DNA of 64,000 bases, from NCBI GenBank assembly GCA_049999805.1, contig JBNGIO010006348.1, positions 522,452-586,451 of the forward strand, in the 5' to 3' direction. Of the stretch, positions 7,401 through 54,532 are shown piece after piece. Under the pieces are notes generated by a model. It saw only the letters and a program-made list of their open reading frames with translations, was not told the origin of the DNA and ran no database searches. The first letter of the stretch is position 1. Every line of letters starts with the position of its first letter. The stretch is from Folioceros fuciformis. Its lineage: Eukaryota. The translations under genes and the position numbers were made by a program.

Positions 7401-10400
7401 ATGGGGGATTCTGGTTCCCTTGAGGCCGAGCAAGGTGGTGTGAACGCGGTTCTCTTGAGAGTGCTACCCACTCTTTCAGAGGAGATACTCTCTGATCTCT
7501 TCTCGCTTGGGGTATGTTGTTGCATGGACTGTGTGTTCCCTCAAGGGCTTGTTCTGTGGTTCATTATTTGCTTGCCTGCAGGATGAGACTGAGGGCTCCC
7601 CGTGTGTGACATAGGTGTGCTCACGATGCGTGTTCCGGTTTCTGAATGTCCGGGATACAGTCTACAGCATAGAGTTACCGAGTCCTTCTGCCTTGTTGGC
7701 GCTCGCTCAAAAGGACTTGTTTAATGGAGACAACGTCAGGACTGCTAGTCGGAGTAAACCTGCAAATGCGGAGAAGAAGCAGAGTCGTGCTCTTGGGCCA
7801 CGGATTGCCAAACCGTGCAGTGTTTGTATGGGAATCTTGCAGATGCCGGATCCTGTTGAGTGGACTGATGTGCCCGACGCTGCCAACAATTACACCACTA
7901 AGTTCTCCATCTTGGAAGCAACGAAGCCTGGAGGATACACGTTTGACAGCTTCTGTTTGGAGGTCACGGTGCCAGCTGTAGCCCTCGTAAGGGAGAGAGC
8001 ACTTTGGTATTAGACTGATTGATTACTTGGAATGATATTTTTCTCAGCTGGTTGCAAATACTGTGTAGTGGAATCTGGTAGGCTCATTACCACCTCAGTC
8101 TCGCCGCCATCAACACACAGCACTTAAGGAGATCTATTTATGCAGGTGCTATTTGCAGAGGACTTACAATTCCAGGGGACTGTTTGAGGGTTGGGATCCC
8201 TCCGACCATATTGTATCGCTGAAGGAAGCAGTCAAATGGTCTTTGATTGAAGGGGTGGAAATTTTACTGGTATGGGCACCTTCGGCACGTGCAACCGGCT
8301 TGGGGTGGAATGGGAAAAACTCATGTTTAGGGGATGACTAGCTGTTTGGGCTCTTTGCAGGGTGTCAAATTTGATTCAAGATCTACTTTCCGAATTGCGT
8401 TAGTCTACAAGCATTCTGATCCGTCATTGGATCTGGATTTTCTTGTTGGGAACGACTCCAAGAGGAGGAGGAGAGGTTTTCACTAAACTCATTCTCATTT
8501 TAGTCAATATGGATGGATATTGTTCGTTTGTAAGACCACTGTGCTTAGTAGAGTTCCGTGGCCACTGCTTCTAGGTTACGCTCCAGCAAGTGATCGTGCT
8601 TCAGAAGGGTTTGCAGCGGTAGCGGCGGCAAGATCTGCAGAGAGTTCAGAGTCACTTGCATCCGTTCAGCGATCTCTGTCATCAATGCCTGATGAAACGT
8701 TCACTCGACACTTTCCAAGCCCTCCGCTCCAGGTGCCACATATATCTACCTCTTTTTCTTTATGTGCTTTTGTGACCAGTACCTTATGGTTCGAACAGGG
8801 CGCTACCTTTTTTCAGGTCTGATTGCTCCTAGGGTGGTTTGACTTGCAGCCTGATCAGTCATGTGAATTGACTATTATGTGCTGGAGAGATTCCACGTAT
8901 GTTGGTGGGCGGTATTGCAAGGTACGGAGCAAGCTCTCTCTATGGTGTCCTCTTTTTTCAAGCTAGTTGTGGTCTTAACAATTGAAGATCTTGCTCAAAG
9001 AGATGGCAGATATGTCATTGTTGCTGAGTTGTTGCCAAAACTGTACCTTTTGTTGTTGTAGTTCTCACGGAACATAACCCAGAGTCGCTGGATGATTGAC
9101 GAAGAGAGAATGGGGGATGGTTCAGTGCAAGTGAGTGGGGAAAGTTGTCTAGCGTTCTGCCATGTTCAAGAATTTTGGAGCTAATATGTGAGGAATATTT
9201 TTTCAGGAAACTGTGGGGAATGTCGTGTGTCCACATTTCAAAGCTGATGGCTACAAGTTCCATGCGGCCGGTCGTGAAGACATGGATGTGAGCCTCTTTC
9301 GTCTACCTTGACCCAGGTACCGTTTTATATCTGAAGCGTACGCCTTGTCAACTAATAGCTTCTCCATAGGTGAGAATGCTTGGCAATGGGAGACCATTTT
9401 TACTCGAGATAATGAACGCAAGGGTGATTCCAAGTCCAGCAGAGATGACTCACTTGCAGGGGCTAGTGAATAGTAGCCAAAGCTTGGTGTGTACTCGGAA
9501 GATCCGTCGTTGACGTTCTTTTGTGTTTGTATCTTCGGTATGCTGCTAGGTGTACTTTTAAGGGCATCACTAACCGGTATTTTGCTTTTTGGCATAATCC
9601 TGCCAGAGCAGGTTCAAGTGCGTGGACTGCAGGTGGTTGGTGTCGAGGCATGTGCGCTGATGAGGGAAGGAGAAGCAGAAAAACAAAAGGAGTATGTTGC
9701 GGTTGTCTGGTTATCTAGAGCTGCCCTGCCCTCAGATTTTGAAACACTCTCCAGTTTGTCAGAGTTGGTGCGAACTTTCTCATTCTGTCTTCACCTCTCT
9801 GGTTGATTATCGTCATTCTGGCCTGTTGATCCTCCTGACTTTTCACATGTGAGTGTGCAGATCATTGAGCAAAAAACGCCTATTAGGGTGCTGCATCGGC
9901 GCAGCCCACTCATTCGACAGCGAGCTATTCACTGGTATTGAGCAAGTCTTGTTTTCCTGTTCAATCTCTTGGCCAACTTGGCAACAATCAAATAACTCGC
10001 TTGCCTGTGCAGGATGAGATGTGAAGCGATTCCAGGCAGGAGCGAGTATTTTCTTTTGTATCTTTGCACTCAGGTACGCTACCAGCTATTTTCTCCTTCC
10101 TCACTCTGGTGCTCCTAAATCACAGTATCCGGAAAGATTTTCTCGAAGTAAGCTTCTGCCCAGGTGGGCTACTCTCATGTCTTCTGTGCCCACCTCATCG
10201 ACTGCGCGCGTGCAGGCTGGCACATACATCAAGGAGTTCGTTCATGGAGATCTTGGCCGGACAGTCCCGAAGTATGCCTTCTGGTGTATCTTTGTCATGT
10301 ATTTCCGTGTTTGAGCCATAATCTGAGAACCGTCCTCCACGGTCGCTTGACAATGCCTCCTGGTGTTCCCCCAGTATTGGATCGTTGTTGGGCTGCGAGG

Positions 10401-10468
10401 CGCAAATCTTACAGCTGGATGTTGTGGACGTCAAGATGGACTTTGTGACAACGGAGGATCAGCCGTGA
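7401..10468 (+). CDS. PUS10: tRNA pseudouridine synthase Pus10, multi-exon
   Basis: Spliced motifs YVGGRYCKFSRNITQSRW, FHAAGREDMDVRMLGNGRPF, EGEAEKQKEY, QKTPIRVLHRR, TQAGTYIKEFVHGDLGRT, LQLDVVDVKMDF, plus N-terminal CxxC pairs. Stop TGA at 10466-10468. Confidence 0.95.
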
Positions 10469-11267
10469 CAAACAATTTCGTCACAAACTCAACAGGTCTA
10501 GTGAATCTATTGTGATCTGGTGAATCATAGGGATGTTAGAAATTGTCTTCATTCAATGTAGAAGATGTTTGCAAGTGGCTCATCTCCAACAGCATCGCTG
10601 TGAAACGCAGCATGCACACTTAGGTCCGTACGTAGATGGGGTTGCCTTGACAGAGTGGATGCCTTGTGTGCAAGTACCCTGCTTAGGCATAGCAGGGTAC
10701 AAGTTTCCCATCGCCTTCTTCACTACCCAAAATTGATTGCTAAACTTTTTCACCTCTCCCTTTAGGTATGACAATTTGGACTCCTTTGTCAAGCATCCTT
10801 GAGCAGGATCGCTCTTAGGATCGGGTGCCATGTGTTCCCTGTGGGGAAAGCCTCACGATTCTACCTGCTCTGAATCCTGAAAGGGGGCTACTTTAAATAT
10901 GTGTATCTAGCTTTGTTCTCACAAAGAAGGGAAATTACCGCCATGGCTTACGCTGAGCAATGGTCAACTGGGTCCACTGTCGGAATCTAATTCGTCCTGC
11001 CCTCATCTGTCTGGAAAATTCACATCTCCTTTGTTCGTGCCAAATGATTATATGGGCTTCTTAGAACGGAGAATCTCGACAGGAGTATCTTGATCTCCTT
11101 GCAAATCTTGCGAATTGGAAAAATCGGCCGTGTTGGAACTGGCATAGTGCTATCTTCTGTCGTTGGGAGATCTGTGTTGGGTCCGGGTTCTGGTTGCGTG
11201 CTTCGACATTGATACTGCGCAGCTTGAGTTGGCCTCCATTTGGAATTTCAAAGGCATCCGACATGCT

Positions 11268-14877: not shown

Positions 14878-17514
14878 TCATACATAATCACCTGCACGGT
14901 TGGGTAGGGGTAAGCCATCCAGCTCTAGCTTAGATAGATCACTTTCAATGCCATCTGGATCCCCTCCCTGGTAACCAGCCCCTCTGATGGCTGCAAGCGT
15001 GGCCCTTGCCTGGTCATTGGCACTCTGCCAGACACTTCTTGTTGAAGGCCCCTCTGATCTCGTCGGGGTTTTCATTTCCCTCTTTTCCCAACCTCTGCCC
15101 ACGCTGTTCCTGATTCCTTCACCCTGGAAGTCTGGGAAGTAATCCGATGATTTTTGCGGAGAAGTGGGAAAAGCCTGGCTCGTAGCCACCTTAGGATCGA
15201 GAATGGATGATCTTAACGGGAACGGATCCGGCCTTGGAGAGCCCTGGTCATTCAGCCATGGAGAAAAGACAGGGTATAGGTCATTCCTTGGGCGTCCAGG
15301 CAAACTTGATGGCAGTGGTGCTTCCTCAATTCTGATGGGATCCTCAGGAGGGCTTTTCGGGCCAGTGCCATTGAAACTGTCGTGCCCAATCTTTTCCACA
15401 TCTCTTCTTGAACCGTGCTCATCCGAACTCAAAGAACCCTTGTCATTCAGCCATGGAGAGTATCTCTCCGTCCTTGGGAGTCCAGGCAAACATGATGGAG
15501 GTGATACTTCCTCAATTCCGATGGGATAAACAGGAGGGCTTTTCAAGCCAGTGCCATTGAAACTGTCCCCCGGGTAGTTGTTGCCAAACTGTGTGACCCT
15601 GTCAGGACTTACCCTACCAGCAGATGCAGCGATGTCGTGCCCGATCTTTTCCACATCTCTTCTTAAACCGTGCACAATCTCTTCAAGCCCAGCCATGGCC
15701 TCCTGATTGTTAGAGACAAGGTCTTGAAACATGTCCATGAGCTGTGCCTGCTGGCGCTCGATCTGTTGAAGGTGCCTCCGGATTGCCGTCCACATGCTGG
15801 GATCATTGGCAACCCTTGTATCGAAGTCACTAGCGGCTGGACTGTAAGGGTTGGGCGATGCTGCATTCCCGTCCCAACTCCCACCATTGGTCAAGTCGAT
15901 CCCAATACTGAGTTTCTTATCCAAAGACAAAGGCTCCAGTGTTCTCAGAGGCAGATCTCTGGGGTCTGATTTCAAGACACTTGCCACAGAACTATTCAAA
16001 TCGCGTCCTGTCTGAAATTCCATCGAGTCCCCAGACTCTGTGCCAGATCTTAGATCAACCGAAGAATATGTCTGCGGTACCAACGTCAGTTGACGCTGCC
16101 CTTGTGTACACATTCTCGCCATTTCATCGCCCACCTCCTCTTGCGACAAAACCGATCGAGGCGGACCACACACCTCAATGGGGAAATTGTCAAAATTCTC
16201 AGTGTTCTTGTCTCCGAGCTTCTTAAAGAACTCCGGATTCGTTTTCCTGTCACTAATTTGTGGACTTCGCTTTCTTGCAGAAGATGGATTTTCTGGTGAC
16301 GCATTGGAAAAGCTTGAAGGGAATGTACCTTCCGAAGGAGGAGGAAACAATACCCTGCTCGTCCGAACGCCAGCTCCTGAGTCATGATCGGAATACCGAG
16401 GAACAGACATAAGGCTGGATGCCACAGAAATATCACCCCCAGACTTTGATGGTCTCCCTCCACCATTTCTGCCAGCAGAAGACGACTCCTCGTCACCCCC
16501 CGGGACATTCTTCCACAGTGCCATAGCATCATTCACACTGTCACGTACCGGTTTCACCTTGTCAAAACGGCAAGCTTCCAATGCGGGCATCACAGATCCC
16601 TTGAAGGGACTGAGAGCAGGCCCAACACTCATGGCCATGCGAACAAGGGTCTCAGCTGCGGCCTTTCTGGTTGTCCAATCAGTGCTATCCAGACATTCTT
16701 GAGTACAAGGAACCAGCGCGGTGAGCAGTGCTGGGGCTGCTGCGTCTGCTGTTGCGATTGCTTGAGACAGGCTCCCTATCACAGACAGAAGTCCAGCTTT
16801 AGCCAGAAACCCTGGCATGCTCATGAACTTCAGAATCCGAGGCAGAAGCCTCTGCACAGTTGCCGTTGGTACGTTCTCGATCCTGTCCAGAACTCGAGCC
16901 AGGCACAGCGATGCTCCAACCTGCACACCCTTGTTCTGCTCTGTCAAGGCCTCCAGCAGCGGCTTCACAAAAACCCCGATGGAGGTCGCAGGAGGCCCTG
17001 CACTGTCGCCCCCGCCTCCAGATGACGCCGAACCCGCAACCGGATATGACACGTGAACGGCTAAAACACCAATGACATCCACGCACACTTCACGAATGGC
17101 GGAGTCAGGATCCTTAAGCCGGCGAACAATGTTGCTGACAATCCTGGGAAGATGGGGGACAAGGCCATCTCCATGCATTGATGCAAGAGTGCCAAACATC
17201 TTCACACATTCTCTCCGCACCACGGCTTTCTGCTGCAGATCGGTATCATACAAACACGCCAGAAACATGGCAATCCCTTCCGGAGTCAAGCCCTGCGCAA
17301 TACTTTCCAAATCTTCCAGGGCAATCTGCTGAGTATCCCGATCAGAGAGCTTGTTCAAGGCTGCCAGAATCCTGTTCTTCAGTTCCACGAGAACCACTTG
17401 GGGAGGCAATCCAGGCTTCACATTCCCAGATGGCCCACCCCGAGGCCTACCCTTGGCCAGCATCATGCCGCCGTGAACATTCATGCCTTGGACCAGCTGT
17501 CTATAATGCTCCAA
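14878..17514 (-). CDS. TOR1: TORTIFOLIA1/SPIRAL2-like microtubule-associated HEAT-repeat protein
   Basis: 878-aa ORF with ELKNRILAALNKLSDRDTQQIA, IVRRLKDPDS, DWTTRKAAAETL, LEACRFDKVKPVRDS, coiled coil LQQIERQQAQLMDMFQD and SEGPSTRSVWQSA. A short extra 3' exon at ~14778-14689 is possible. Confidence 0.9.
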   Translation of the reverse strand: MEHYRQLVQGMNVHGGMMLAKGRPRGGPSGNVKPGLPPQVVLVELKNRILAALNKLSDRDTQQIALEDLESIAQGLTPEGIAMFLACLYDTDLQQKAVVRRECVKMFGTLASMHGDGLVPHLPRIVSNIVRRLKDPDSAIREVCVDVIGVLAVHVSYPVAGSASSGGGGDSAGPPATSIGVFVKPLLEALTEQNKGVQVGASLCLARVLDRIENVPTATVQRLLPRILKFMSMPGFLAKAGLLSVIGSLSQAIATADAAAPALLTALVPCTQECLDSTDWTTRKAAAETLVRMAMSVGPALSPFKGSVMPALEACRFDKVKPVRDSVNDAMALWKNVPGGDEESSSAGRNGGGRPSKSGGDISVASSLMSVPRYSDHDSGAGVRTSRVLFPPPSEGTFPSSFSNASPENPSSARKRSPQISDRKTNPEFFKKLGDKNTENFDNFPIEVCGPPRSVLSQEEVGDEMARMCTQGQRQLTLVPQTYSSVDLRSGTESGDSMEFQTGRDLNSSVASVLKSDPRDLPLRTLEPLSLDKKLSIGIDLTNGGSWDGNAASPNPYSPAASDFDTRVANDPSMWTAIRRHLQQIERQQAQLMDMFQDLVSNNQEAMAGLEEIVHGLRRDVEKIGHDIAASAGRVSPDRVTQFGNNYPGDSFNGTGLKSPPVYPIGIEEVSPPSCLPGLPRTERYSPWLNDKGSLSSDEHGSRRDVEKIGHDSFNGTGPKSPPEDPIRIEEAPLPSSLPGRPRNDLYPVFSPWLNDQGSPRPDPFPLRSSILDPKVATSQAFPTSPQKSSDYFPDFQGEGIRNSVGRGWEKREMKTPTRSEGPSTRSVWQSANDQARATLAAIRGAGYQGGDPDGIESDLSKLELDGLPLPNRAGDYV

Positions 17515-18520: not shown

Positions 18521-19871
18521 GTTTTGGGGAATCCCGTCCCGTTGTGCTCGGACCCCGTCTTTCCTACCCTTAGCAGGGGCCGCGGTTACGTAGCCGGGGT
18601 TGAAACCGACCGGTTCGGGTCTTGGAGATACGAGCAACCGAGATCGTGCGGACGACAGGCAGGAGAATGGAGATGCCCGATGCTCGATGCTCCTTCTCGC
18701 AAATGCGCTTCACCGACGAGCGCCTGCTCCCGCTGTCTTTGTGTCAGGACATGAGTTCGCTTTTCCTATCATGCAGTCCGGACGAATGCGCCGTTGGAGT
18801 ACTGTAGCCAGTGCTTCCTTTCACCGACAGACTCACATGCGCGGAGTCTGGAGTACGTTTTGCTGCTCGGAGGACTCCAGTCTGGTGCTTTGAGGAAAAC
18901 GGGCTTCGGACTTGTGGACAGCTGGATCCCTCACGCAACCCCTAGTTGCCATTAGAGTCGAGAATCCATTAATCTGTTTCTTGCTTGGCTCCAAGAGCAT
19001 ATCCAGGCTGGGTCGGTCAAGCATTCTGGCAATAATGCAACGGGAAATCGGTGTTGTGAGCTTCCCGTGCATTGCAGTGCGGCGCCTGTCCTGTGTGGCA
19101 TGCATTGCATACCACATCCCTACATCTGCCGTTTGGAAAGGAGCTTCATGAGGAATCGATGAAGAAAGCATCGCACAACCCCCCGAGTGACGCCGGCAGT
19201 TTCGCTGTTGAGCCGATCTGGTGTAGAAGGGTCTTCAAATCCTCCCCTCCTTGCTAGGAGAGATGGCCCTCCCTGCTGCTGCATGGAAGGAACACTGTTT
19301 CCAAGAGCAAAGCTTCCTCCCACGGCAAACTCTACTTAACACTAAACCATCATCGCTGTGAGAATCGGGCGCTCTTGACGATCAACCATGATCGCGCTAA
19401 TAGCAAAGAACAATTGTGGGGTGCACCAATGGGAGTAGTGTTTCGTCCCAACGAGTGCCTTCGAAATCCAGCACTTTTTGGTTAGGTGCACGATGTCATT
19501 GAAAGTGCCCAACTAGTGATCCTAACGGTAATGGATAATTTAGTAATTCAATAGCATAATAATCTGCATCAGGACACTTTCCTCGACAACATGTGGAACC
19601 AAAGTTCAAGGGTTCTAGATGTCCGCTAAATTAATTTCCCTATCTATCCTACTTATCATAGCCTTCCATGGCATATTTAGCATCATATGATTGCCCTAAT
19701 TATGACTGACATTAGCAACTTCCCATTATACTCTCTCCCTACCTTAGTAAACCCTAAATCTGAACAAACCTTACTATATTTGTAATAACAACTTCTCATT
19801 ATAGACTTTATTGCTACCTTGGTAAACCCTAAACCTAAACAAACCTCACAATATAAATGTATCGGAAACCA

Positions 19872-20007
19872 ATTCTTCTGCTCATAGAGCCATTTTAACT
19901 TGTCTCCTTCTTTCCTACAATTGTTAACATCCTTGTAAACCTATTCTTCTGCTCATAGAGCCATTTTAACTTGTCTCCTTCTTCCCTACAATTGTTAACA
20001 TCCTTGT
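19872..20007. repeat. 71-bp tandem duplication
   Basis: attcttctgctcatagagcc...ttaacatccttgt starts at 19872 and again at 19943. Confidence 0.85.
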
Positions 20008-20454
20008 TCACTCATCTCTACTATACTCCTTTTAAGTTAAACTATATATCATGAAAGGTCTACATATCTCTCCTAAAACAAATTTGATCAGAAAACCAAC
20101 AAGTCGGTTCAAACAAACCAAGCTAAACCCATTGTTAGTAACTCGTGACCCAAAGTTGTGAATTCTACATTATGTTCTTAAGATATGTTTTGATTTTTCT
20201 AAGTCTCTTCCAGTATTCCCCTTTCTCCTGTCCTTTTCTTCTAATGTTTGGTTCTTCATTTCCTTTTGGTTGTTTTTTTTTCTCCCATTTTTTTGTTTGT
20301 TTTTTTTTTTTTGCTTCCTCGTTTTCTATTCTCTTTTTCTTCTTCTTTTTGTGAAATTTCATTTTTTTTGTTTTTTTTAGAGGTTTTTTTTTGTTTTTTT
20401 GTGTTTGAAAATAAATTCTTGGTATCTTCAACCTACAGGAACAAGTTCATAAAC

Positions 20455-21237
20455 ATGGAGCATAGCAACTTGATTAATGGTGCACATGCATCGACATCAA
20501 TGCAAACCTATCCTCATGAAGCCACTATTAGGCAGCATCAAGAGGTGACACATATAGTAACAAGGGAGACCAATTTGAACAAAGTGCAAACCTTGGATTC
20601 CAACCTAGATCGAACCCAACGTCCAATTACAAATCAAGAGGCGTTACTTGCAAAAATCGATAAGGAGCTAATTGCGGCCTATCACATTATCAAAAGCGTC
20701 ACTAATACATTGCAGTTGCCAGCCATGGTCCGTCCTTCAACAACGTACCTTTTTGGTCTATTAAAGGATTTGCATGAGGGCAATTCTAGAGAGTGTATTG
20801 TTGCAGCTCTTTACATAGCAAGCAAATGGAATATGACTTGTCATACCATCGACGAAATTAAAAATTCTTTGAGTACCATGCACATAAGAAATGAGGTCAT
20901 TCAACAAATGGCAAACAAAGTGGCAACCAACATCATGCAAAATGCTAAAGAACACATTAAAGAAGCTATTAGAAGATTAGAATTAAACTCTCTCGAGCAA
21001 GTTCTTGCACGAAAATATTTTAAGAATTTGTTTGTAATAAGTGATCCGAGAAAGTATTGTATACTTGAGCTTGTGGGTGCAGCTATTTATGTAGCTAGCG
21101 ATTTCAGTGCTGAAGAAGTTAGGTATGCTATGAAAATGGCAGTCGAATCGCAGATCATGGTAGAATTAAGAGATAGATTGCTCTATCTTTACCGGAAAGG
21201 GATAAAGGCGAAGGAGGAAGCAAAAAAACAATCCTAA
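20455..21237 (+). CDS. Intronless TFIIB-core-like (two cyclin-fold repeats) protein lacking the Zn ribbon, copy 1
   Basis: Pattern AYHIIKSVTNTLQLP...GNSRECIVAALYIASK...TIDEI and a second repeat LEL...LVGAAIYVAS resembles TFIIB/BRF cyclin folds. Paralog at 46284-47015. Confidence 0.6.
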   Translation: MEHSNLINGAHASTSMQTYPHEATIRQHQEVTHIVTRETNLNKVQTLDSNLDRTQRPITNQEALLAKIDKELIAAYHIIKSVTNTLQLPAMVRPSTTYLFGLLKDLHEGNSRECIVAALYIASKWNMTCHTIDEIKNSLSTMHIRNEVIQQMANKVATNIMQNAKEHIKEAIRRLELNSLEQVLARKYFKNLFVISDPRKYCILELVGAAIYVASDFSAEEVRYAMKMAVESQIMVELRDRLLYLYRKGIKAKEEAKKQS

Positions 21238-21324
21238 GTATACATTTCTATCTAAACATAGAGGTTTCCCTTTATCACAACCATGTATCATTGGATTTTC
21301 ATATTATTATTATTTCCAGTACTA

Positions 21325-24300
21325 CTATGAGCACGAGTGTAGGAAGCACTGAAGCGTTACGAGCACAAGCTTGTTCCGAGCGATGTGAACATCAACACCT
21401 CCGCATGCACCAAGGAACAGGTGCTCGGAATGATGAGGAAGCCTATGAAGATTGAGTTGAAGCCTGGCACGAAGGATGTTAGCATTGTTGAAGTGAGATG
21501 TTTGGTCACCAGTGCAAAGACATATGATGTCTTGTTGGGGTCGGATGGAACTAACCGACCTGCTATAGGAGTTGATCCCTCGCACACAGAAACCTTCTAT
21601 AGACCATTCTATTGGAGAGGAGATTTCACATATGTTGCACAAATTCTTTCAGGATGAACAGGAGTGGTGGGAAGAGCAGGATGAGAATGACAGGCAGCGC
21701 CATGATTGCCCACAGTGCTCAGAGTGAGCATCGACACGAGATGTGGGAGGAAGCGCAGGAGTTATCCTCTCTAGAGATGCCGAAGCCAAGAGAACAGAAG
21801 GGTATGCTCATGGTTGTTCGTTCAAAGTATTTGGATGAAGCTAGGGTTCGAGAAAACCAGCGAAGGAAGGAGAATCGACTGTGGAATCTTACAGACACAT
21901 CTTCTGAGAGGTCAATCCCACATATGAGGCCTGCCACGGCAAGAGATCGACGCATCAACGATGCTCTAGTACGATGGAAGGTGGGCGTTGAAGACATCCA
22001 TCTGTTGGAGCTCTGCTTAGAAATCAGCAGTGGCCTGGAAGTGGTGTTGCAGTGTGGCATCAAGGTACACAAATCTACCTGCATGGAGAAGGACAAGAGG
22101 GCTCGGGCTGTGGCTAGGAGCCGAATTCTCAGGTTCTATAAGCAGTACCCAATGCTATTGAGCAAGGAAGTAGTTCGAGGCTGCCAGAGCAGGCTGCGCA
22201 CACACGTGAACTTGGTGGGGAAGCGGCAGCTAGAAGCCTTGTCAAGTCCGATGGATATGTTGATCGAGGGATCACCCATAGGCCGATGGCCTGATAGAGA
22301 GGCTAGTGCAAACCTTCAAGGATGCACGAAGGAAATACTGCATCACTGTGGAGCCCAAGTGTTGGAATGAATTGCTCCCTTACATCGTGTTGGGGTATAG
22401 GGTTAGTGTGCAAGCAGCTCTTGGGAGTTTCAGTCCATATTTCTTGTTATTTGGATGCAACACAATGTTGCCAAATGTGGTGAAGGATACTTACTCCATC
22501 CCTGTTGACTGGAGCAAAGATGCAAATGTGTGCTTGGCACAGGTTCAAGCCATAGCAGAAGTGTTTCAAAGGATTCTTCCTATGGCTATGGACAATTTGG
22601 CTGTGTCCCAGCATTGGAACCGGCTGGGGTACGCTTACACGTGGGGGGGGCTTGTGGAAGCCCAAAGCTCTGCAAGTTTGCACCTAGAGATTATGTGTGT
22701 TTGCAGCACAGGCCTGCAAGCATGTTGGATGTCAGCATAGGGAGGCTTATCTAGAGAGTTGTGCAAGTTGGTGAGCAGGGTGTGGTTGAACTTGAAGGAA
22801 GAGATGGCAGACGATGCAAGGAGCACATGAAGCACTTGGCTCCATGCCATTTGCCTAACTTGGACACATGAACTATGCCTCAGGCCTAGATGCCACCAGC
22901 AGATTTGCCCTGTGGGGAGTGTGGGCACACAACTGATAAAGAGTTCATGTTGTTATGTGACAGATGTAACCGTGGTTACCATCTGTTTTGTCTCAAACTA
23001 GCACTGGACAATGTTCCAGAAGGAGAATGGTTATGTGAACACTGTAACGTGCTAAGTGTGAACATGGCTCTTGAAGAAGACGGGTTTGATATTGTATTAA
23101 ATCCACATGAGATGGAAGCTGAAGCAGAAGTCTTGAAGCACAGCAGTGAGGAGAAACGTGAGAGGCTTCAAGCCAAAATCACAGAGTGGGATGTTGCATA
23201 TGCTCGAGGGTAGGCAGACTTTGAGCGTGAAGCCAGTACTTTGCGAAGGCAGGAGATTGTGAGAAGGAGAATTGCGGAGTTACACAGGAATGTCAAGCTT
23301 GATAAGGGTCCAATTTGGACTCGAAATGAGAGGCAAAAGTGGGCTCGTGTAGCTACGAGAGAGCATGCCACTTTGAAGGAAGAATTTCTACATGTGCAGG
23401 CTGAACAAGCTCACAGGTTGGGAATTCCTCACAATGTGTTTCTGAATGTTGTTGCAGCTGTTTGGAGTTGGATACAGAGCGCCATGGGCAGGTTGGCCTC
23501 ACACGTATGAGGAAGAAGGTGTAAAATCCCTGCCCTACCCACAATTGCTGAAGGTAAAGCATCAAAAGGGGGAGCGCCACCATCACCCAAGCACAAGAGG
23601 GGATGTCCATGCAAGCATCCTCCATCATAGACCATGGAAGCCCAACAGGAGCTCAGGGCAAGTCGGCCTCGACCCAGGGAGCGATCAGCTAGAGCTAACA
23701 GCAACAAGAGGACACTCCGGTCGCCTCCTCATAGTAGAGTAGCGGAGCACAACGCTTACCTACCAAGACAACCGAAGCATACCCCTAAGCCTGCTCAGGT
23801 ATATCATGTTTGTCGGCATTCGGCAAGTGTTGTGAATTCCAGGGTCGTAACCAGGAATAGCAGATTTCACCCTGCACAGCAACCATGGAGGAGGCCTCGA
23901 GCAAGCGGCGTGGAGGTGCTGGAGGCTGTGCCCTCCAGGGTGTGCTATGAGTGTCTCCAATTCAAGCACGTTTCTCATGGCAGGATGGGACCCCAGTTTG
24001 TGGATGATGAGAGCGCGGGCAAGTGGAGTCTCTTTCATTTGCGCAAGTATGACCCAGAACGAGGTATTCCACCTGCAAGTTACGATGAACTTCACACCTT
24101 CATGCTGTATGTCGAGGAGCATCATGAAAGCTACAAAGTGGAGTATTATCCTAGTGAACACACCAGGATTTGTTTGAACTCCAGTGCCGGGGTTATAAGT
24201 GATTGCCCTGGGAATGGACAAGCTATATAGAAGGTGCTTGGAGGAAGTTGCAGCACCACTTTCATATGCATCAGTGGTTTGACGGGATGAGGTTGCCAAC

Positions 24301-25965
24301 AGAGTTCATTGATTGGGGAGACATGTACCCTCCTCACTTGGTCTTTCTCAAAGAATGGTTTAGAGTGTTCCACCATTTGCAGACATGGCATCATGTGGTA
24401 GGATGGCCTCAGCAATTTTACATTTTGACCAACAAGCTGAGCACGCCTTATGTTGACCAACATGCTTGGACTCAAGAGGAGAAGGACACGTTCGACTGAG
24501 TCAGGAACCTCGCAAGCCTGCATATTTACACTTACTGTAAGTTACCATTTTTCAATTACCCAACTCAGGAAGCTTACAGTAGGGACTTGGATGTCGTGCA
24601 AGATGGCACACACCCTATTTTGAATCAGCTAGATGTGCACAAGCGCTTTGTGGAAAAACAGATTGACCATCTCTCTGGATTCAAGTTGCCTAGCGAGATT
24701 GAGATCAAGCAGGAGCCACATGAAGACCCGCCGGATGATGAGGATCTTGAAGATGATTTTGTAACTCGCCCTCACGCAGGCCATCATGAGTGTTGGACAA
24801 GTTACATTTTCGATGATGGGGGCATTGGTAAGCAGCTGTTATGTTTTCTAGGCAAGGTGGTCTAGACAATTTTGTGGGAAACTTGGTGGCTTGGCCCCCA
24901 AGTTTCCGAGGGGGGTTGTTCGCGACCCTGGGCCTGCCTCTCTTAGGCAAACCCAGCCCTTCTTGTAGCCTTGCTCTTGGTCATAGGCCAAGGACAATTT
25001 GTGGCTAGGTTGTTGATCTTGGGCCATAGGCCAAGGATATCGCAGGCAGGTTGGTGCTTATATACTTAGCTTTGTGGATAGGCTAGGTAGGCATGCAACT
25101 ATACGGCTACTACGCGACAGCTATCATGCTGTAGCTATATGAAGAACATAGCATCTGAGACTTTATGACTAGATACTGATTGGAGCATCCTAGGCATAAG
25201 CCCTAATGTTGAAGTGCTTGATGATGCCATGTACATGGCCCATGGATGGCCTGCACATGACATGTATGCCTGAGTGTGTGCCATGTATGCATGTGTGCAT
25301 GTGAAGATGAAGGATGACATGTGGATGCATGTAACATGTCTAGAGAGAGTATGTATGTATCATGGTGGATGTGAACTATGTGTTGGATGCATGTGAGGAG
25401 CAGCGCCATGGTACATATGAATATGAACCATTGCGGAGATATTTCAAAACAAATATAAAAATGATAAAATAAGAAAAAAACGAAGTAGGCTTTTAGTTGG
25501 TTAGTATTTGGTAATAGACCAAAGGCCAAGGAGAAGTAGGACTATAAAGTGCCTACCATCGGAGCGAGGAGGCACTTCATCGAGAGTTCTTGAGGATTTT
25601 GCTTATATATGTGGGCTGCCCAGTCATGAATTCTTGGATTGTTGATGTTTGTCTTGTTCTAATAGATAGGCATACTTTGTCCCTGGTGTGTCTCTGTTTC
25701 CTGAAGGTTCTTGTGGTATGTTGCATTGCCAGGTTGCGAGAATTTTCCATCTTGATTTTACCTATTCGCGGCCCTGGGCCTGCCTCTCTTAGGCAGACCC
25801 AACCCTTCTTGTAGCCTTGCTCTTGGTCATAAGCCAAGGATAATTTGTGGCTAGATTGTTGATCCTGAGCCATAAGCCAAGGATATCGCAAGCAGGCTGG
25901 TGCTTAGATACTTAGCTTTGTGGACAAGCTAGGTAGGCATGCAGCTATGCGGCTGCTGCATGTCA
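21325..25965 (+). mobile_element. Degenerate, 5'-truncated and internally deleted Ty3/Gypsy LTR retrotransposon carrying DNMT-like and PHD domains
   Basis: Protease-like CLVTSAKTYDVLLG (~21500). C5-MTase-like motifs at ~21975-22266. Integrase C-half RDHP*ADGLIERLVQTFK / WNELLPYIVLGYR / FSPYFLLFG (22267-22870). PHD finger at 22905-23045. Polypurine tract gagggggg (24908-24915) followed by TG at 24917. Confidence 0.85.
24917..25965 (+). repeat. 3' LTR region with ~200-bp direct repeats at both ends (24917-25119 and 25763-25965)
   Basis: Begins TG right after the PPT and ends CA. Both repeat copies read t(g/a)ttcgcg(a/g)ccctgggcctgcctctcttaggca... Confidence 0.75.
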
Positions 25966-26807
25966 AGCGCAATTCATCAATTGTTCCAAGCACGTGACAT
26001 CCTGGTTGTAGGATATCCCTTCTCACCCCATGTATAGCTAGAGCACGATCTGAATTTCAATGATCGCTCAACTCTTAACACATATCAATCTTTTCACTCA
26101 TGTTCCATGCATTGTCTACCTTCTCCTCCCCCTCCTCCTCCTACGACGAGTCGAAACAAGAGCAGCAAACCGCACCACCAAGAGCAACAGTAAAAGGAGG
26201 TGGTGATCAAGAAAATTAGGAACGTTGTTGCCACATTGTTTGGTGATGCAATGTGTTATATGTTGGTGATCATGTTGTTCACACAATATAATATAGGTGC
26301 TTGGCACATTGTTTGCTACAATTCTCTACAATGTTCCTACTTTCACGCAATGGTCGATTTGCTGCTACAATGGTTTCATGTTCTTCAAGCACAAGTTGTA
26401 ACATTCACCTTTACATAGGGGCTTAGAACCTCATAGAAATAAATTCACCTGCTCACCAAACGGCTTGTGCTCACACACAAACGAGAGAGGGAAAAGGGGA
26501 GAGAACAGGTGCTTGTTCATTTGCTCCCATAAGTCTAGACTCGTGATACAGGTGCTTGTTCATTTGCTCCCATAAGATGAAGGTAACGAGCACTTACATT
26601 GACCGCTTATGAAGTGTCAAATGCCAAAAGTTACACACAATTAGTAAGTGCCTTCTACTTTGTCCAAAAGATTCAATCTTCCTAAAGCTCAGTGTGAACC
26701 TAGCAAAATTTGTATAATTTGCTACCTCACTTAATAGTCCCCTACAAAGAAATTTGTCTAAACTCACTAATTAACGTAAATGCTACACCACAAGATTTGG
26801 GGCTCCA
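25966..26807. repeat. Dispersed repeat block, inverted homolog of ~49016-49862
   Basis: Shared stretches include cccttctcacccca, gcaccaccaagag, aattc(a/g)cct(g/a)ctcaccaaacggcttgtg and cttatgaagtgtcaaa. Confidence 0.85.
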
Positions 26808-41683: not shown

Positions 41684-41900
41684 CAAGGTTGCAATCATTT
41701 ATATACCCAAATTGTCCTTGACTCTTGAATGTCTTTCCTCAAGGTTGTGATCATCTATATACCCAAATTGTCCTTGGCTCTTGAAAGTCTTTCATCAAGG
41801 TTGTGATCATATATATGCCCAAATTGTCCTTGGCTCTTGAAAGTCTTTCATCAAGGTTGTGATCATATATATGCCCAAATTGTCCTTGGCTCTTGGAAGT
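41684..41900. repeat. 56-bp tandem repeat, ~4 copies
   Basis: caaggttg starts at 41684, 41740, 41796 and 41852. Confidence 0.95.
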
Positions 41901-42130
41901 TTAGCATAGAGGCCTTTTAAAGTATCACGAGAAACCAAGTTAGCATACTACCCTCCTAAACTATCACAAGATACTAAGTTAGTATATTGTCCTCTTAAAC
42001 TATCACAAGATACTAAGTTAGTATGTTGTCCTTTTAAACCATCTCAAGATACTAAGTTAGCACACTACCATCTTAAACTAGCAAAAGATACTAAGTTAAC
42101 ATATTGTCCTCTTAAACTATCACAAGTTAC
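41897..42130. repeat. 39-bp tandem repeat, ~6 copies
   Basis: Unit approximately cacaagatactaagttagtatattgtcctcttaaactat. Confidence 0.9.
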
Positions 42131-43626
42131 TGCAGTTAATAATTTAAGTCAACTCACTTCTTCGCAACTAAACTTTCACAAGGTACTGCTACCGAGAGTC
42201 TAAGCCAGCTTACTTCTCTGGGAAAGTATCACAAAACCATTGGAAGGGTACAAGAGTCTAAGTGGACGCACTACGCACTTCTAAACTAAGCTAGCTAATT
42301 ATGCTATAGTTTAGTTGAAAACATACTCGAGGAACCTTATCTTATGCATCTCAATGCTAACATCTCTTATTAGTTTATTGAAGTATGTTTGCAATCAATA
42401 ATGTGGAATCAATCAATCATATTGTCGTACATATGGTCAAATTGTGTAAGATCTCAAATATTGTTTGGATAAAAGTTAGAGAACATTTAGAAAGGAATAT
42501 GGATGGTTGTTTGATATACCTCCTATTGTATAGGGAAATGATTTTCTTTCCTGGTAATGAGGATCTTGATTGCCCTAGATATAGTATAGCACAAAGTATG
42601 TTCCATCATAATGAGACTAAGTTTAGGTTTCAAGAAACATACTTAGTTTAGATAATTACTAATTAAGGATGAAGTAAACATCATTTACTTTAGTAATGAT
42701 CACTTAGCTTCATTACCATCAAATATGTTTGATGACTTATGATGGTAATGAATCTAAGGTTATGCATTAAGAAAGTAGTTGATTTAAACAAATACTGATA
42801 AGAGGTGAAGAAAGCCTTCTAGTGTAAAGGTAATGGAATCTAAGACTCTTAACACTTGTACCGTAGACAAACTAACGGATATCCCAACATTCCCCATACC
42901 CTAAAAGTTTGGGGGCATCTTATTGAACCTAATGAGGTGTATGAGAGGTTTTGAGTTCTGTGCACTTCTCTCTCCTTTCTCTTTCATTTTGGAAATGCAT
43001 ATAGCTCCTTCTCCAATCCCAATTCCATAAAGACAGACATGGCTGGTTGCGTGAGTGCATCTTAGCATGGGGGTTGACCCTGCTTCCATGTTGCTGGCAG
43101 TCTTCCCCATTTTTTGGTTTTTTGATGATTTGATTAGATCAAAATAAGTTGAGTTTCGTGAGGTACATCTAGATGTGTCTATGGAATTGGGGGAGGTAGA
43201 ATGATTCTTGGAAAGAAAACACGAAGAGAGAAGAGAATGTGGAAGGTTTGGTGCACAAAGCTGAAAAACTTTTATATGGCTCTGTACTTGTTGCAAATTT
43301 ATGTTCCCACATTGTCGAACTGATTAAGTTATGGCAAGTAGCGTGGTGGGGGGTCTCGATTGAAGGTCGTGGCAGTGACTTGACGTGAATACGATGCACG
43401 CCACGAAACGCGGCAGCTGCTGCTGTTTCCTTTCAGAACATATTCGTTACGTAAACGCGTTGCGCGTGTGCAATTCAGTGGTGGGTCTACAATCCATTGG
43501 CATAATATGGACCCGCTTTGACTTATCTACATGAAGTAACACGAGGAACTAATGACGAGGGTGACGCTGTTAGAATAATCCCCCCCTAGCCCACCCACAC
43601 AATCCAGGTTAAATCGCGTTCAGGAT

Positions 43627-45662: not shown

Positions 45663-46283
45663 CCAGATGTGGCTGCCGTCACGGGTGGCCCACCTGTCCG
45701 ACTTTCTTCGATTAAACTGCACCGCGTCGGACACAGCTCATGGAATCCTCGTGTGGCAAAGCAAGGCCCTACGCACACGCAACACCTCCCTCGACCCACT
45801 CCAGCCGTTTCCAGCCCTTTCACACCAAACCTCGCAGCTCCGCGCACCACAATTTACACACTCCAGCTGCTGCCTGCTCCGATAAGTTCGTCGCAATTTC
45901 ACTTCCTCCAGATCCAGCTTCTGCACAACCGGCGGGACGAATCAGCAGGGGAGTTTTTTCTCGACATCGATTTCCGTTCGAATTGCGTGTACAAGGACTT
46001 GGCCTTGCTTATCACAGAGGCCCGGAATGCGGATTCAGACGACAGCAGCGCCCTGTGACATTTTGCTTGCAGGAGTGGGAGGTTCCAGAAACCTTTGATT
46101 TTCGATTCCTGTGGAAAGCCTTCGTTTCGTTTCACATATTTGCTTATTACTCTTACAACTCACAGCCTCAGCGTAGCGTACCGTAGCTACAAGCTGTGCC
46201 ATGGCCTCACTTTGCATACTCCCTAGTTTACAACACAAGAACAGCAAACGGGAAATTTTACCAATTTATATAGAAATGTGCGC

Positions 46284-47015
46284 TTAGGATTGCTTTTTTG
46301 CCTCCGCCTTCGTCTTCATCTCATCTTGGAGAAGTGAGAGAAAGTTATCTCTTAATTCTCTCATGACCTTTGTTTCCACTTCCATTTTCATACCATATCG
46401 AACTTCTTCAAAAGTGAATTCGCTAGCTGCATAAACAGCTCCACCCACAATGTCACGTATACAATACTTTCTTGGATTACTTATTATGAAAAATCTCTTA
46501 AAATATTTTTGCACGGCAACTTGCTGGCGAGAACTCAATTCCAATCTCAAAGCAGCTACTTCAATATGTGGTTTAGCATTGCCTATGATGTTGGTTTCCA
46601 CTTTGTTTGCCATTTCTTGAATGACCTCATTTCTTATGTGCATAGTATTCAAACAATTTTTAATTTCGCCGATGGTACGACGAGTCATATTCCATTTGCT
46701 TGCTATGTAAAGAGCTGCAACGACACACTCTTTGGAATCGCCCTCATGCAAATCCTTTAATAGACCAAAAAGGTATCCTGTTGAACGATGGACTTTGGCT
46801 GACAACCGCAATGTATTAGTAACGTTTCCGATTGCCTGACACGCCGCGACTAGCTCCTGATCAATTCGTGCAAGCATTAGGGCTGCTTGATTTGTAATTG
46901 CACGTTGGGTTTGATATAGGTTGGCATCCAAGGTTTGCACTTCGTTCAAATTGGTCTCCCTTGTTGCTACACGTATCACCTCTCGATGCTGCCTAATCAA
47001 GTCGCTACGCTCCAT
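46284..47015 (-). CDS. Intronless TFIIB-core-like protein, copy 2
   Basis: 243-aa ORF colinear with 20455-21237 (shared YLFGLLKDLHEG, VAALYIASKWNMT, MHIRNEVIQ, PRKYCI, EEVRY, EAKKQS*). About 700 bp of upstream sequence is also homologous (47696 corresponds to 19662). Confidence 0.6.
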   Translation of the reverse strand: MERSDLIRQHREVIRVATRETNLNEVQTLDANLYQTQRAITNQAALMLARIDQELVAACQAIGNVTNTLRLSAKVHRSTGYLFGLLKDLHEGDSKECVVAALYIASKWNMTRRTIGEIKNCLNTMHIRNEVIQEMANKVETNIIGNAKPHIEVAALRLELSSRQQVAVQKYFKRFFIISNPRKYCIRDIVGGAVYAASEFTFEEVRYGMKMEVETKVMRELRDNFLSLLQDEMKTKAEAKKQS

Positions 47016-47860
47016 TGTTTATGAACTTGTTCCTGTGGGTTGAAGGTACCAAGGGATTTTTTTACAAACAAAAATGAACCCTCAAAAGAAAAGAAGAAAA
47101 GAAGAAAAGAAAGAGAAAATGAACAACCAAAAAGAAACAAAAGAGAATAGAAAACAAGGAACGAAAAAAAAAAACAAAAACAAAGCAAAAACCATGGGAT
47201 TAAAGGAAACAAAGAACCAAAACATAAGAAGGGAAAGACAAGAGAAAGGGGAACAATGGAAGAGAGTCGGAAAAATCAAAACGTACCTCAAGGACACAAT
47301 GTAGAATTCACAATTTTGGGTCACGGGTCACCGGCAACGGGTTTGGCTTAGTTAGTTTGAACGCACTTGTTGCAAACTTGTTTTAGGAAAGATAGATAGA
47401 CCTTTCATGAGTGTAGTTTAAGTTAAAGGAGGATAGCGGGAGGGGGTGGACAAGGATGTTAGCAATCTTACGAAGAAGGAAACAAGCCAAAATGGCTCCG
47501 TGAGTGGGAGAGTAGGTCCAAGATAGCAATAGGATGCAAGTACCTACCACATTTATTGTAGGTTAGTTTAGTTTAAACTAGGTTATTTTAGTTTAGTTTA
47601 GGGTTTACCAAGGTAGGGATAGAGTGTATGATGGGGTAGTTGCTAATGCTTGTCGTAATTAGGGCGGTCATATGATGCTTAATATGCTATGGAAGGTGTC
47701 GTGCTCTAAGAGATCTTGCCTTTCAACATACGAAGGTCTTCAAGCCTAAGACTGTTTAAACTTAGCATATATTTTATATGTGCTTAGCATGAACTCATGT
47801 ATATATGGGGTGGCCGGCCCCTATATTGATTTACGCGTATATTCTTGCAACAGTGCACAT

Positions 47861-48157
47861 AGATGCCTCCCCTTGGGTGCTTCCTCCCCATCGTGCACAC
47901 GAAGGCTATTGGTCATCTTCCACTCTTTGGTGGCTCACTTCGCACGAGATCGACGAAAGGAGCAACTTCTTTGCCCCCCCTCCCTCGATGCGAGTGGGTG
48001 ATCACAGCTCACAGTACACAGATGCCTCCCCTTGGGTGCTTCCTCCCCATCTTGCACACCAAGGCTATTGGTCATCTTTCCACTCTTTGTTGGCTCACTT
48101 CACACGAGATGGATGAAAGGAGCAGCTTCTTTGCTCCCCCTCCCTCGATGCGAGTGG
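47861..48157. repeat. ~159-bp tandem duplication
   Basis: agatgcctccccttgggtgc...ccctcgatgcgagtgg starts at 47861 and again at 48020. Confidence 0.9.
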
Positions 48158-50109
48158 AACATAACATATTCTAGGGTCATCACCTGACAAGTTTCGTGAC
48201 GTCAATCCGACTACCTCATGTATCACGTCATTGCAACCCTCTCACGTGTAATGGAACATGAAGCTGCAAATTCGTGACGCAAAAGCTTTGATTCAATTGT
48301 TGAGTCCGCTACAAGCTTCATGATCAGGCTGCGCTGTCAAGATGTGCTGATTGTCAATTGACTTTGAGCTTTTTAAGCGAACTATGAAAAGAATGCTCAT
48401 TCATTCTTCCCAAACCCCTATATACTTGCAACATTTCGTTGCCAACTAAGTTGCCTGGGTGAGCATTCTCAACCGGTATAAACCGTTCATAAAGTTAACT
48501 ACCAAAATAACTGTGCCCGCCAGCTGTCCTTTCGCGATAACTTTTTAGGTACTGGCTGCCTCTTTGGTCAAAACGCAACGGCTTTATCTTCACTACGCAC
48601 TTGTTCGCCATGAGTTGTCAACTTGCATGGTATCGATATGCAAAGCAAGTTCGCGCAAATGCAGCACTCTACTAGACTTTCTAAGTCATCACAAAGGCCA
48701 TGATAATTAGGATAAATAGGGAAATTAAGTACCTCATAGAAATTAAGATAAATGATCTATACATAAAAACAAAAGAAATCCCTACATAATATCTAATTTC
48801 TTTATTTATCATAATCGTATATTCAAAGTAACACACATAATAGTCAAATATTTTCAGCCAATAAAACATGGGTGGGGAATAAAGAGGAATACTTTTCAAA
48901 GTAAAGCATGCCTCGAGACTCACTCGAGGTAGTAGTTATGGACCATAAGAATGTCGTACTTAAATGCTCTACATGCACCATGGCATGCCTACTAGAAGTC
49001 TAATCTACTTCTCGTGGAGCCCCACTTCTTGTGGTGCAACATGTACGTTAGTTACTTAGTTTACACAAATTTGTTTGTAAGGGACTATCAAGTGAGGTAG
49101 CAAATTGTACAAGTTTGCTAGGTTCACCCTCATCTCGAACGAGTTTGAATCTCTCGGGCAGCGTTGAAGGCACTTACAAAGCGCGCATAGCTTTTGGCAT
49201 TTTGACACTTCATAAGCGGTCGATGTAAGTATGCGTTACCTGAATCTCACCGCAGCAAATGAACAAGGACCCGCATCACCAATCTAGACGCTCGTCGTGT
49301 TGTGGCTTGTATCCTCTCCTCCCTTTCCCTATCACGCTTGCGTGTGCACACAAGCCGTTTGGTGAGTAGGCGAATTTATTTCTACGAGTTTGGAACCAAA
49401 AGCCCTCTTGTGTAAAGGTGAATGTTACCTAGGCTTGGAGAACATGAACATGAAACCATTGTAGCAGCGAATCCACCAAAGCATAAAAACAAGAACGTTT
49501 TAGAAAATGGTAGCAAACAATGTGCGAAGCGCCTACATCATTGTTGGTACGGCATGGACAACAATATGTAACACATTGCAGAACCAAAAAATGTGGTAGC
49601 AACGCTCCTAATTCTTGGTCACCACCTCCTCCTACCGCTACTCTTGGTGGTGCTGTTGTTGCTCTTGGTTCGACTCTTGGTCGACGGATCCGGAGGATGA
49701 TGGAACGAGGGTACAAAGAGTGAGTTGCGTTTCAAGAGTTGAGCGAGGTCGGCAAACTCAACACCACACTTTTGTTTTGGATGGTGCTCCAACTAGGTGG
49801 GGTGAGAAGGGATGTCCTACTACAACTAGGCTTTCACGTGCTTGTGACCGTTGATGAGTTGCACTCCTATTGTAGAGTGCCCAACCATGTGGTGCGTGTA
49901 GGGGGTGTGCAACAGGCCAGGCAAGGAGAAGAAGGCCCTTGCCATGTCCTTGCAATCACCTCCAACCATTGTTCGTAAACGTCCAACGTATTTTTTTGGA
50001 AACATGGAAGAAATTACCATGAAAATAGAACAATAAATTAATAATGATAATAATTCAATGATGCATAAAAATACTTGATTCTGCTCAACGGGAACCGTCT
50101 CTTGTTTAC

Positions 50110-50314
50110 ATAGAAATGTGCGCTTAGGATTGCTTTTTTGCCTCCGCCTTCGTCTTCATCTCATCTTGGAGAAGTGAGAGAAAGTTATCTCTTAATTCTC
50201 TCATGACCTTTGTTTCCACTTCCATTTTCATACCATATCGAACTTCTTCAAAAGTGAATTCGCTAGCTGCATAAACAGCTCCACCCACAATGTCACGTAT
50301 ACAATACTTTCTTG
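50110..50314 (-). pseudogene. 3' fragment of the TFIIB-like gene, apparently identical to 46270-46474
   Basis: 205-bp direct repeat at an offset of 3840 bp, abutting a Copia remnant. Confidence 0.9.
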
Positions 50315-54326: not shown

Positions 54327-54512
54327 GAACTTAGGATCCGCTGTTTTCCAACATATTGAGTAGTGGACCAGAGATTGAACTTATGATCCGCTGTTTTCCA
54401 ACAGATTGAGTAGTGGACCAGAGATTGAACTTATGATCCGTTATTTTCTAACAGGTTGAGTAGTGTGGACAAGAGATTGAACTTGGGATCCGCTGTTTTC
54501 TAACAGATTGAG
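54327..54512. repeat. 50-bp tandem repeat, ~4 copies, immediately upstream of the EDM2-like ATG
   Basis: gaactt.gatccg starts at 54327, 54377, 54427 and 54479. Confidence 0.9.
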
Positions 54513-54532
54513 CCGGGGAAAAGAAAATCAGA

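Follow-up and report, generated by a model that had tools for sequence, protein, structure and literature searches.

A predicted DNMT3-type methyltransferase remnant and a PHD finger in a retroelement relic of the land plant Folioceros fuciformis

The stretch of DNA analysed, hereafter the window, comprises 64,000 nucleotides of Folioceros fuciformis (GenBank assembly GCA_049999805.1, contig JBNGIO010006348.1, positions 522,452 to 586,451 of the forward strand). Positions 21316 to about 25957 of the window are, with a probability of about 0.88, what is left of a repeated retroelement with genes of Ty3/gypsy type in a land-plant genome, a copy that is dead, cut at its 5' end and deleted internally; this reading includes the architecture of the wider family and the mechanism proposed below. 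Between protease and integrase, this copy carries what is identified by sequence comparison as a remnant of a cytosine-5 DNA methyltransferase of the DNMT3 type, and a PHD finger follows the integrase. Intact members of the wider family encode Gag, protease and a DNMT3-type methyltransferase, then, after one in-frame stop, reverse transcriptase, RNase H, integrase and PHD finger, between ends that appear to be arranged as A1...B1-A2-B2. The coding parts of the window copy are the following:

21316-21654, plus strand: aspartic protease of retroviral type, C-terminal part, frame 1, without the catalytic DTG region
21969-22262, plus strand: remnant of a DNMT3-type cytosine-5 methyltransferase, frame 3, spanning motif I and the residues up to, not into, motif IV
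22005-22034, plus strand: degenerate motif I, inside the methyltransferase remnant
22262..22263, plus strand: deletion junction, about 3.3 kb gone in comparison with locus L030
22263-22868, plus strand: integrase, C-terminal half, from the alignments with protein P0023 and with the second open reading frame (ORF2) of L030
22911-23045, plus strand: PHD finger (C4HC3), directly 3' of the integrase, inside the open reading frame (ORF) 22890-23213

The sequence-only reading of this DNA had quoted a methyltransferase-like ORF, an integrase-like frame from 22282 and the PHD ORF 22890-23213, and the first of these, ORF 21603-22370 (plus strand, 255 amino acids), was found with the same letters, as were the other two. 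An exhaustive HMMER search of 1.84 billion representative proteins (cut-off E <= 0.001) returned 18 matches to this ORF, with a best E of 1.3e-9, all of them on residues 76-228, the methyltransferase-like stretch, with a core at about 117-227. Ten of these 18 relatives were scanned with Pfam. PF00145 (DNA_methylase) was present at E <= 0.01 in seven, above the curated cut-off in six of the seven, and was not found in the remaining three (P0001, P0004 and P0011). A retroviral aspartyl protease was located N-terminal to the match in two of the ten, P0004 and P0010. Among the longer members of two clusters, P0021 (1344 amino acids) and P0022 (1169 amino acids), the methyltransferase domain closes the protein; the Pfam order is protease and then methyltransferase in P0021, and CCHC zinc knuckles and then methyltransferase in P0022, the protease region of which was read by eye only. 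By tblastn, the remnant aligned to residues 930-1031 of ORF1 of L030 and to residues 488-582 of P0004.

To establish the type of methyltransferase, a family profile (alignment A4, nine sequences) was searched against the PDB. DNMT3A was the best match (8.7e-25), followed by DNMT3C (8.1e-24) and DNMT3B (1.2e-22); DRM was found at 1.3e-14, and M.HhaI and DNMT2 at about 1e-7, and neither DNMT1 nor a chromomethylase (CMT) was among the 55 PDB rows for this profile. The DRM structures align to profile positions 76-204 only. Motifs follow the order I, IV, VI, VIII, X in the relatives, an unpermuted arrangement unlike that of DRM, and the window piece begins with motif I. A structure search of the ESM Atlas with P0032 ranked DNMT3A first (TM 0.71). 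The window segment is classed from these comparisons as a true remnant of a C5-methyltransferase of the DNMT3 type, which confirms the observation made from the sequence alone; all parts of that earlier interpretation open to testing were supported, with the corrections given below.

Only a stub of the domain is preserved, about 100 residues with 27-43% identity to every relative compared. The alignment with C5-methyltransferase motifs proposed from the sequence alone stands from motif I as far as the residues ahead of motif IV. Motif I is degenerate: the window copy reads C-L-E-I-S against F-x-G-x-G (F-[AGS]-G-[ILM]-x) in the relatives, and has lost the Phe and both Gly. PCQ (motif IV, with the catalytic Cys), ENV (motif VI) and RxR (motif VIII) are absent from this copy and lie within the deleted part. 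Motif I is intact in L030, L010, P0007, P0015 and P0032, and the intact relatives keep FxGxG, PCQ, ENV and RxR.

When metagenomes were scanned with seven aligned relatives, 54 loci were obtained. In 12 of the 54, the methyltransferase, integrase and PHD pieces of the window are matched in that order. The best-preserved relative is L030, with an ORF1 of 1369 amino acids that carries the methyltransferase at residues 940-1086 and, in the same frame after one stop, an ORF2 of 1047 amino acids with reverse transcriptase, RNase H, Integrase_H2C2, rve and PHD domains. The predicted order of Gag, protease, methyltransferase, reverse transcriptase, RNase H, integrase and PHD finger is thus intact in L030, and is followed in L010 up to the end of the contig. 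Loci L034-L041 and L043 represent a sister architecture, in which the methyltransferase is placed between RNase H and integrase; this second order was read in L035, L038, L040 and L043, with a terminal PHD finger where this was scanned, and L043 is a single open frame of 3609 residues. L042 and L045 show methyltransferase, integrase and PHD finger. Among the aligned loci with the methyltransferase after RNase H or before the integrase, motif IV is ECQ in L038, L043 and L045, with the catalytic Cys kept, and PCQ in L042. The order protease, reverse transcriptase, RNase H and integrase, with a DDE integrase, was found in L030, L010, L035, L038 and L043, and Integrase_H2C2 together with rve in P0023, L030, L035, L038, L042, L043 and L045. 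A PHD finger follows the integrase in all six of the long relatives' ORFs that reach that far.

A profile search of a collection of 5.8 billion proteins gave 188 hits at E <= 1e-10 among 7999 candidates scored. Named relatives, taken from the best 120 of the 188, include proteins of Marchantia polymorpha (MARPO_0008s0049, P0045), Calypogeia fissa (P0032), Sphagnum troendelagicum (P0054) and two Closterium strains (P0073 and P0090). By eye, P0045 shows a zinc knuckle and a protease ahead of the methyltransferase, and P0032 keeps all the methyltransferase motifs. The assignment to a land-plant family made from the sequence alone agrees with these Marchantia, Calypogeia and Sphagnum relatives and with the PPR-E-DYW and TORTIFOLIA1-like genes in the window. 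In addition, P0024 is 91% identical to the methyltransferase domain of L030. Its NCBI label is that of a metagenome-assembled genome of a bacterium (Candidatus Obscuribacterales), and its probable source is a contig of a eukaryotic retroelement that was binned with bacteria.

For the copies in the same sample, contigs from three runs (X1, X2 and X3) were aligned to window positions 19000-26500. The summed contig depth in X1, which is not the same as copy number, lay at 526-884 over 21259-23015, about 50 times the 12-14 of the unique flanks. The stretch 21315-22051, which runs from the protease into the methyltransferase, is matched by a contig (depth 612, 87% identity) that extends 639 bases further in the 5' direction. 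Read from depth, the element is a repeated family and the methyltransferase segment is part of that family. As a separate observation, the alignments of run X3 contain 236 C>T and 116 G>A changes against 33 and 56 of the respective reverse changes, a strong excess that may be that of a cytosine-conversion library; such a run might carry information on methylation of the element, although methylation levels cannot be taken from contigs.

These data bear on two other origins of the methyltransferase-like stretch, as a piece of a DNMT3 or DRM gene of the host that came by chance to lie beside retroelement debris, or as a capture that happened only once. In favour, the family profile lies closest to DNMT3 and next to DRM, and land plants possess DNMT3 genes of their own (PMC12344493). 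Against it, the linkage of protease and methyltransferase recurs in independent records: the fusion was found by Pfam in the unrelated records P0004, P0010, P0021 and P0034 and by eye in P0022 and P0045. Besides, the high-depth contig of the sample spans protease and methyltransferase, and their spacing agrees with that in P0004. Either origin is held to be very improbable, and the segment is thus read as no one-off capture. Explanations by a chance match or by a pseudogene of the host were likewise considered and rejected.

With the methyltransferase read as an integral part of the family, the structure of the window copy was compared with that of L030, with which it is colinear in four blocks (tblastn):

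window 21316-21624: L030 ORF1 amino acids 720-823
window 21969-22277: L030 ORF1 amino acids 930-1031
window 22264-22665: L030 ORF2 amino acids 776-909
window 22662-23066: L030 ORF2 amino acids 908-1041

For amino acids 1-719 and 1032-1369 of ORF1 and 1-775 of ORF2, tblastn found no counterpart anywhere in the 64 kb. The internal gap is therefore about 3.3 kb, and what is missing at the junction is the C-terminal two thirds of the methyltransferase, the site of the stop, reverse transcriptase, RNase H, and the zinc finger and core of the integrase. From 22263 rightwards, two contigs of this sample agree with the window; their loose ends lie at 22263, and before that position both read DRSLIDHRRT (by eye), identical to P0023 just upstream of SRDHP. 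These contigs place the junction at 22262/22263 and indicate that other copies in the organism keep the integrase core. The break had been set near 22266, about 4 bases away, and had been attributed to a single deletion of the catalytic Pro-Cys, reverse transcriptase, RNase H and the N-terminus of the integrase; the comparison supports this and adds the integrase core to the loss. In the methyltransferase frame, the first five codons past the junction give IEGSP, near the I-A-G-W-P of the relatives, so that the joint may lie in a short stretch of likeness.

Two other histories of the junction were considered. The deleted form could represent a non-autonomous subfamily of single origin, multiplied many times with proteins from full-length members. 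Contig depth is equally high on either side of 22262/22263, and short forms recur, as the methyltransferase and integrase pieces of L011 are also only 0.95 kb apart. Nevertheless, no contig that bridges the junction is among the rows listed, those at the junction being loose ends of copies with an integrase core, and the window copy, without its 5' end, is not itself a transposable unit; a subfamily of this kind is considered unlikely. Alternatively, the protease-methyltransferase half and the integrase-PHD half could derive from two copies joined by recombination or rearrangement. The locus has indeed been rearranged otherwise, by the 5' truncation at the repeat that ends at 21288 and by an extra 1.6-kb segment (23080-24662). 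However, the two halves point the same way, stand in the correct order and meet without filler. Their closest counterparts, P0004 and P0023, probably belong to one foreign contig, and both halves map to a single element in L030, which makes this origin less likely still. A deletion within one copy is thus preferred: one gap of about 3.3 kb would have fused the methyltransferase, before its catalytic Pro-Cys, to the middle of the integrase, and stops and frame changes have accumulated.

Such damage is extensive. In-frame stops are located in the integrase (22279-22281 and 22752-22754) and before the PHD finger (22869-22871 and 22887-22889), and the frame changes near 21645-21648, between protease and methyltransferase, and near 22643 and 22671 in the integrase; at each frame change, the high-depth contigs are one base longer or shorter than the window. 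At its 5' end the copy is cut between 21289 and 21315, where it adjoins the end of a different repeat, and gag is absent. Given the internal deletion, the 5' truncation, the four stops and the three frame changes, the window copy is dead and is almost certainly a non-functional relic; judged from its reading frames, it can make neither the enzyme nor an integrase.

The protease piece sets in immediately past the site of the catalytic DTG, and its residues encoded at 21316-21639 are 47% identical to amino acids 282-389 of P0004 (tblastn). The protease (frame 1) and methyltransferase (frame 3) ORFs overlap at 21603-21657. Among proteins of 1064-3035 residues, a search with residues 340-607 of P0004, which span protease and methyltransferase, found no match, which is weak evidence. 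For the integrase piece 22282-22740, a search among proteins of 267-2000 residues gave P0023, which carries Integrase_H2C2 and rve, as the single match (57% identity, E 1.4e-39). The longest contig of P0004 and that of P0023 are each of 7980 bases, and this shared figure suggests that both proteins lie on one element.

The PHD finger described from the sequence as canonical matches Pfam PF00628 at 5.4e-12 (46 bits against a cut-off of 24) and shows eight of eight zinc ligands (CGEC, CDRC, H..C and CEHC). Its closest single-domain match in the PDB was the PHD finger of ATXR5 (5vab, 1.1e-13), with 24 of 48 residues identical, and the next were the fingers of CHD4, MLL3, WSTF, KDM5, DPF, UHRF1, PHF21A and AIRE. 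The PHD finger of ATXR5 is described in PMC5499861 as binding selectively to unmethylated H3K4, and all of its zinc ligands are shared by the window finger. ATXR5 is a host H3K27 monomethyltransferase, whereas the window finger is borne by an element and has an Asn in place of one Asp. No chromodomain was found with Pfam in any ORF scanned, either from the window or from the relatives.

Downstream of the PHD finger, the window copy continues with an extra segment and three repeat units:

23080-24662, plus strand: extra segment, 3' of the PHD finger, not in the commonest form of the family
24919-25111, plus strand: terminal repeat unit B1, 91% identical to 25765-25957, with high contig depth
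25112-25764, plus strand: terminal repeat unit A2, 653 bases between B1 and B2, with a contig depth of 600-2000
25765-25957, plus strand: terminal repeat unit B2, partner of B1

The 3' limit of the repeated DNA lies between 25957 and 26027, and contig depth falls from 870 to 14 at 26028. The element had been called a gypsy retrotransposon with long terminal repeats (LTRs); its genes are of gypsy type, as claimed, but no plain LTR pair flanks the window fragment, which ends 3' in B1-A2-B2 and is missing its 5' end. Split repeats were also found in L021 (A1 1676-2017, B1 10238-10350, A2 10350-10691 and B2 10693-10805). The A1 partner of A2 would have stood at the 5' end, which this copy has lost, and from their sequence the ends of the element look like DIRS-style split direct repeats and not like plain LTRs. 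Terminal repeats were not found inside L030, L038, L040 or L043, the contigs of which probably stop short of them.

The extra segment of 1.6 kb has a contig depth of about 50. One contig in each run joins 23079 directly to 24663, with a depth of 493 (X1) and 356 (X2), which indicates that the commonest form of the family is without 23080-24662. The segment holds ORFs of 98-199 residues; no Pfam family was found for four of these, and they did not match the ORFs of the 54 loci.

The boundary between the methyltransferase and reverse transcriptase frames was inspected in the 32 loci with a match to the beginning of the reverse transcriptase ORF. A stop stands directly at this boundary in 22 of them (14 TAG and 8 TAA), within L002-L025, L029, L030 and L033, and is always followed by CAACCC, CAACCA or CAGTTA (for example at 5083-5091 in L030 and 4509-4517 in L010). 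The other ten, L031 and nine loci whose ORF start is about 35-38% identical to the query, have no such stop, and the nine include those with the methyltransferase after RNase H. The context of the stop fits CAR-YYA, a context of leaky stops in plant viruses, and suggests that pol may be expressed by readthrough.

Several points weigh against the interpretation as a whole. The Pfam scan of ORF 21603-22370 gave no methyltransferase match at E <= 1, and a phmmer search of the PDB with the same ORF gave no match at E <= 10; the proposed identity of this ORF as a methyltransferase depends on intermediate sequences. Taken alone, the two direct blanks would have led to a wrong rejection of the methyltransferase, so that the profile check suggested at the outset failed in its direct form and succeeded through the 18 relatives, seven of ten scanned with PF00145, and the family profile with DNMT3A at 8.7e-25. 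Contig depth does not equal copy number, and no full-length member of the F. fuciformis family was seen among the contigs. The layout A1...B1-A2-B2 is complete in a single locus, L021, and the window is without A1. As L001-L028 are close kin, the 22 boundary stops amount to few independent observations; P0043 and P0090 have methyltransferase and reverse transcriptase in one open frame, and the leakiness of the stop is presumed from its context. Finally, the Asn of the window PHD finger replaces one of the two Asp residues with which ATXR5 contacts H3R2.

For intact members, a mechanism can be outlined on the analogy of known elements. A leaky stop would make the Gag-protease-methyltransferase product abundant and the fusion of reverse transcriptase to integrase and PHD finger rare. 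The DNMT3-type domain would methylate the complementary DNA (cDNA) of the element or the new insertion, and the PHD finger would tether the integrase to nucleosomes with unmethylated H3K4 and so steer insertion into silent chromatin, as chromodomains do in chromoviruses. Methylation of its own cDNA and PHD-guided insertion are both plausible by analogy only. It is somewhat probable that the enzyme is active in intact members; for a role of the PHD finger in guiding integration, the chances appear evenly balanced.

The nearest system described is KnitGypsy-Dnmt3 of the alga Klebsormidium nitens (de Mendoza et al. 2018, PMC5890265). According to that paper, it has a non-rearranged Dnmt3-type domain inside a gypsy-type retroelement of a streptophyte, and its repeats are DIRS-arranged in the legend to figure 4c, which fits the B1-A2-B2 end found here. 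The host is an alga there and a land plant here, and the likeness is one of description. The main text of PMC5890265 has no occurrence of a PHD finger and no stop between methyltransferase and reverse transcriptase, either of which may appear in its figures or supplements. The same paper describes SymbioDIRS-Dnmt3 and SymbioLINE-Dnmt of Symbiodinium, and its discussion proposes cDNA methylation for the Symbiodinium elements; methyl transfer to DNA has reportedly been assayed for the Symbiodinium enzyme. These share a retrotransposon-encoded cytosine methyltransferase with the relatives found here; as described there, they are tyrosine-recombinase (DIRS) elements or long interspersed nuclear elements (LINEs) of a dinoflagellate, whereas the present relatives have a DDE integrase (H2C2 and rve). 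The DIRS order as such has a tyrosine recombinase, in place of which the relatives have an integrase.

Chromoviruses are Ty3/gypsy elements with an integrase chromodomain (Gao et al. 2008, as cited in PMC6673714), and are alike in fusing a reader of histone marks to the C-terminus of the integrase, presumably for the targeting of integration. They differ in that the reader here is a PHD finger. Retrotransposons that encode a PHD finger are also already on record, as cited in PMC6673714; they have this domain in common with the window copy. No report of methyltransferase-bearing elements of the present kind from a land plant was found in the literature searched, subscription journals and supplements having been outside its reach, and in that literature the kind is described so far for dinoflagellates and one charophyte alga. 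Within the same scope, the window family is a land-plant representative of the kind known from Klebsormidium, to which the type of PHD finger, the conserved stop and the split repeats are added.

DNA methylation is the main weapon of the host against transposons, and a transposon with a de novo methyltransferase of its own therefore reverses the usual roles. The presence of such elements in land plants opens this question to organisms for which genetics, methylomes and histone maps exist. Testable hypotheses on expression and landing site come from the recurring combination of a DNMT3-type domain ahead of a conserved stop, an ATXR5-like PHD finger on the integrase and split repeats, and the relic in the window is valuable as a pointer to the family. 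It is tentatively proposed, with the odds somewhat against the proposal in full, that liverworts, peat moss and this plant may host an undescribed lineage of integrase-bearing, split-repeat elements with a DNMT3-type domain on the Gag side of a leaky stop and an ATXR5-like reader of H3K4me0 on the integrase, some members of which would be catalytically intact, self-methylating and choosing silent chromatin. If this is true, the elements would write their own DNA methylation and pick silent chromatin, and DNMT3 and PHD modules could have passed between the lineage and genes of the host.

Judged from the genes around it, the element is set in nuclear land-plant DNA. A TORTIFOLIA1-like gene is located at 14878-17514 on the minus strand, and a PPR gene, a PPR-E-DYW gene and an RWD/IBR-RING gene are also encoded in the window. 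A second repeat family is present at 19662-21288 (plus strand) and 46247-50314 (minus strand), with 76% identity between 19939-21256 and 47517-46265 on the opposite strand, and the end of the first copy, at 21288, adjoins the truncated methyltransferase element. The second copy is a 4.07-kb unit bounded by direct repeats of 228 bases (46247-46474 and 50087-50314, 96% identical), and both copies hold an ORF with a TFIIB-repeat (cyclin-like) domain (Pfam 1e-8 and 1e-7). At 41684-42131 and 54313-54524 there are tandem arrays, the periods of which are 56, 39 and about 50 bases.

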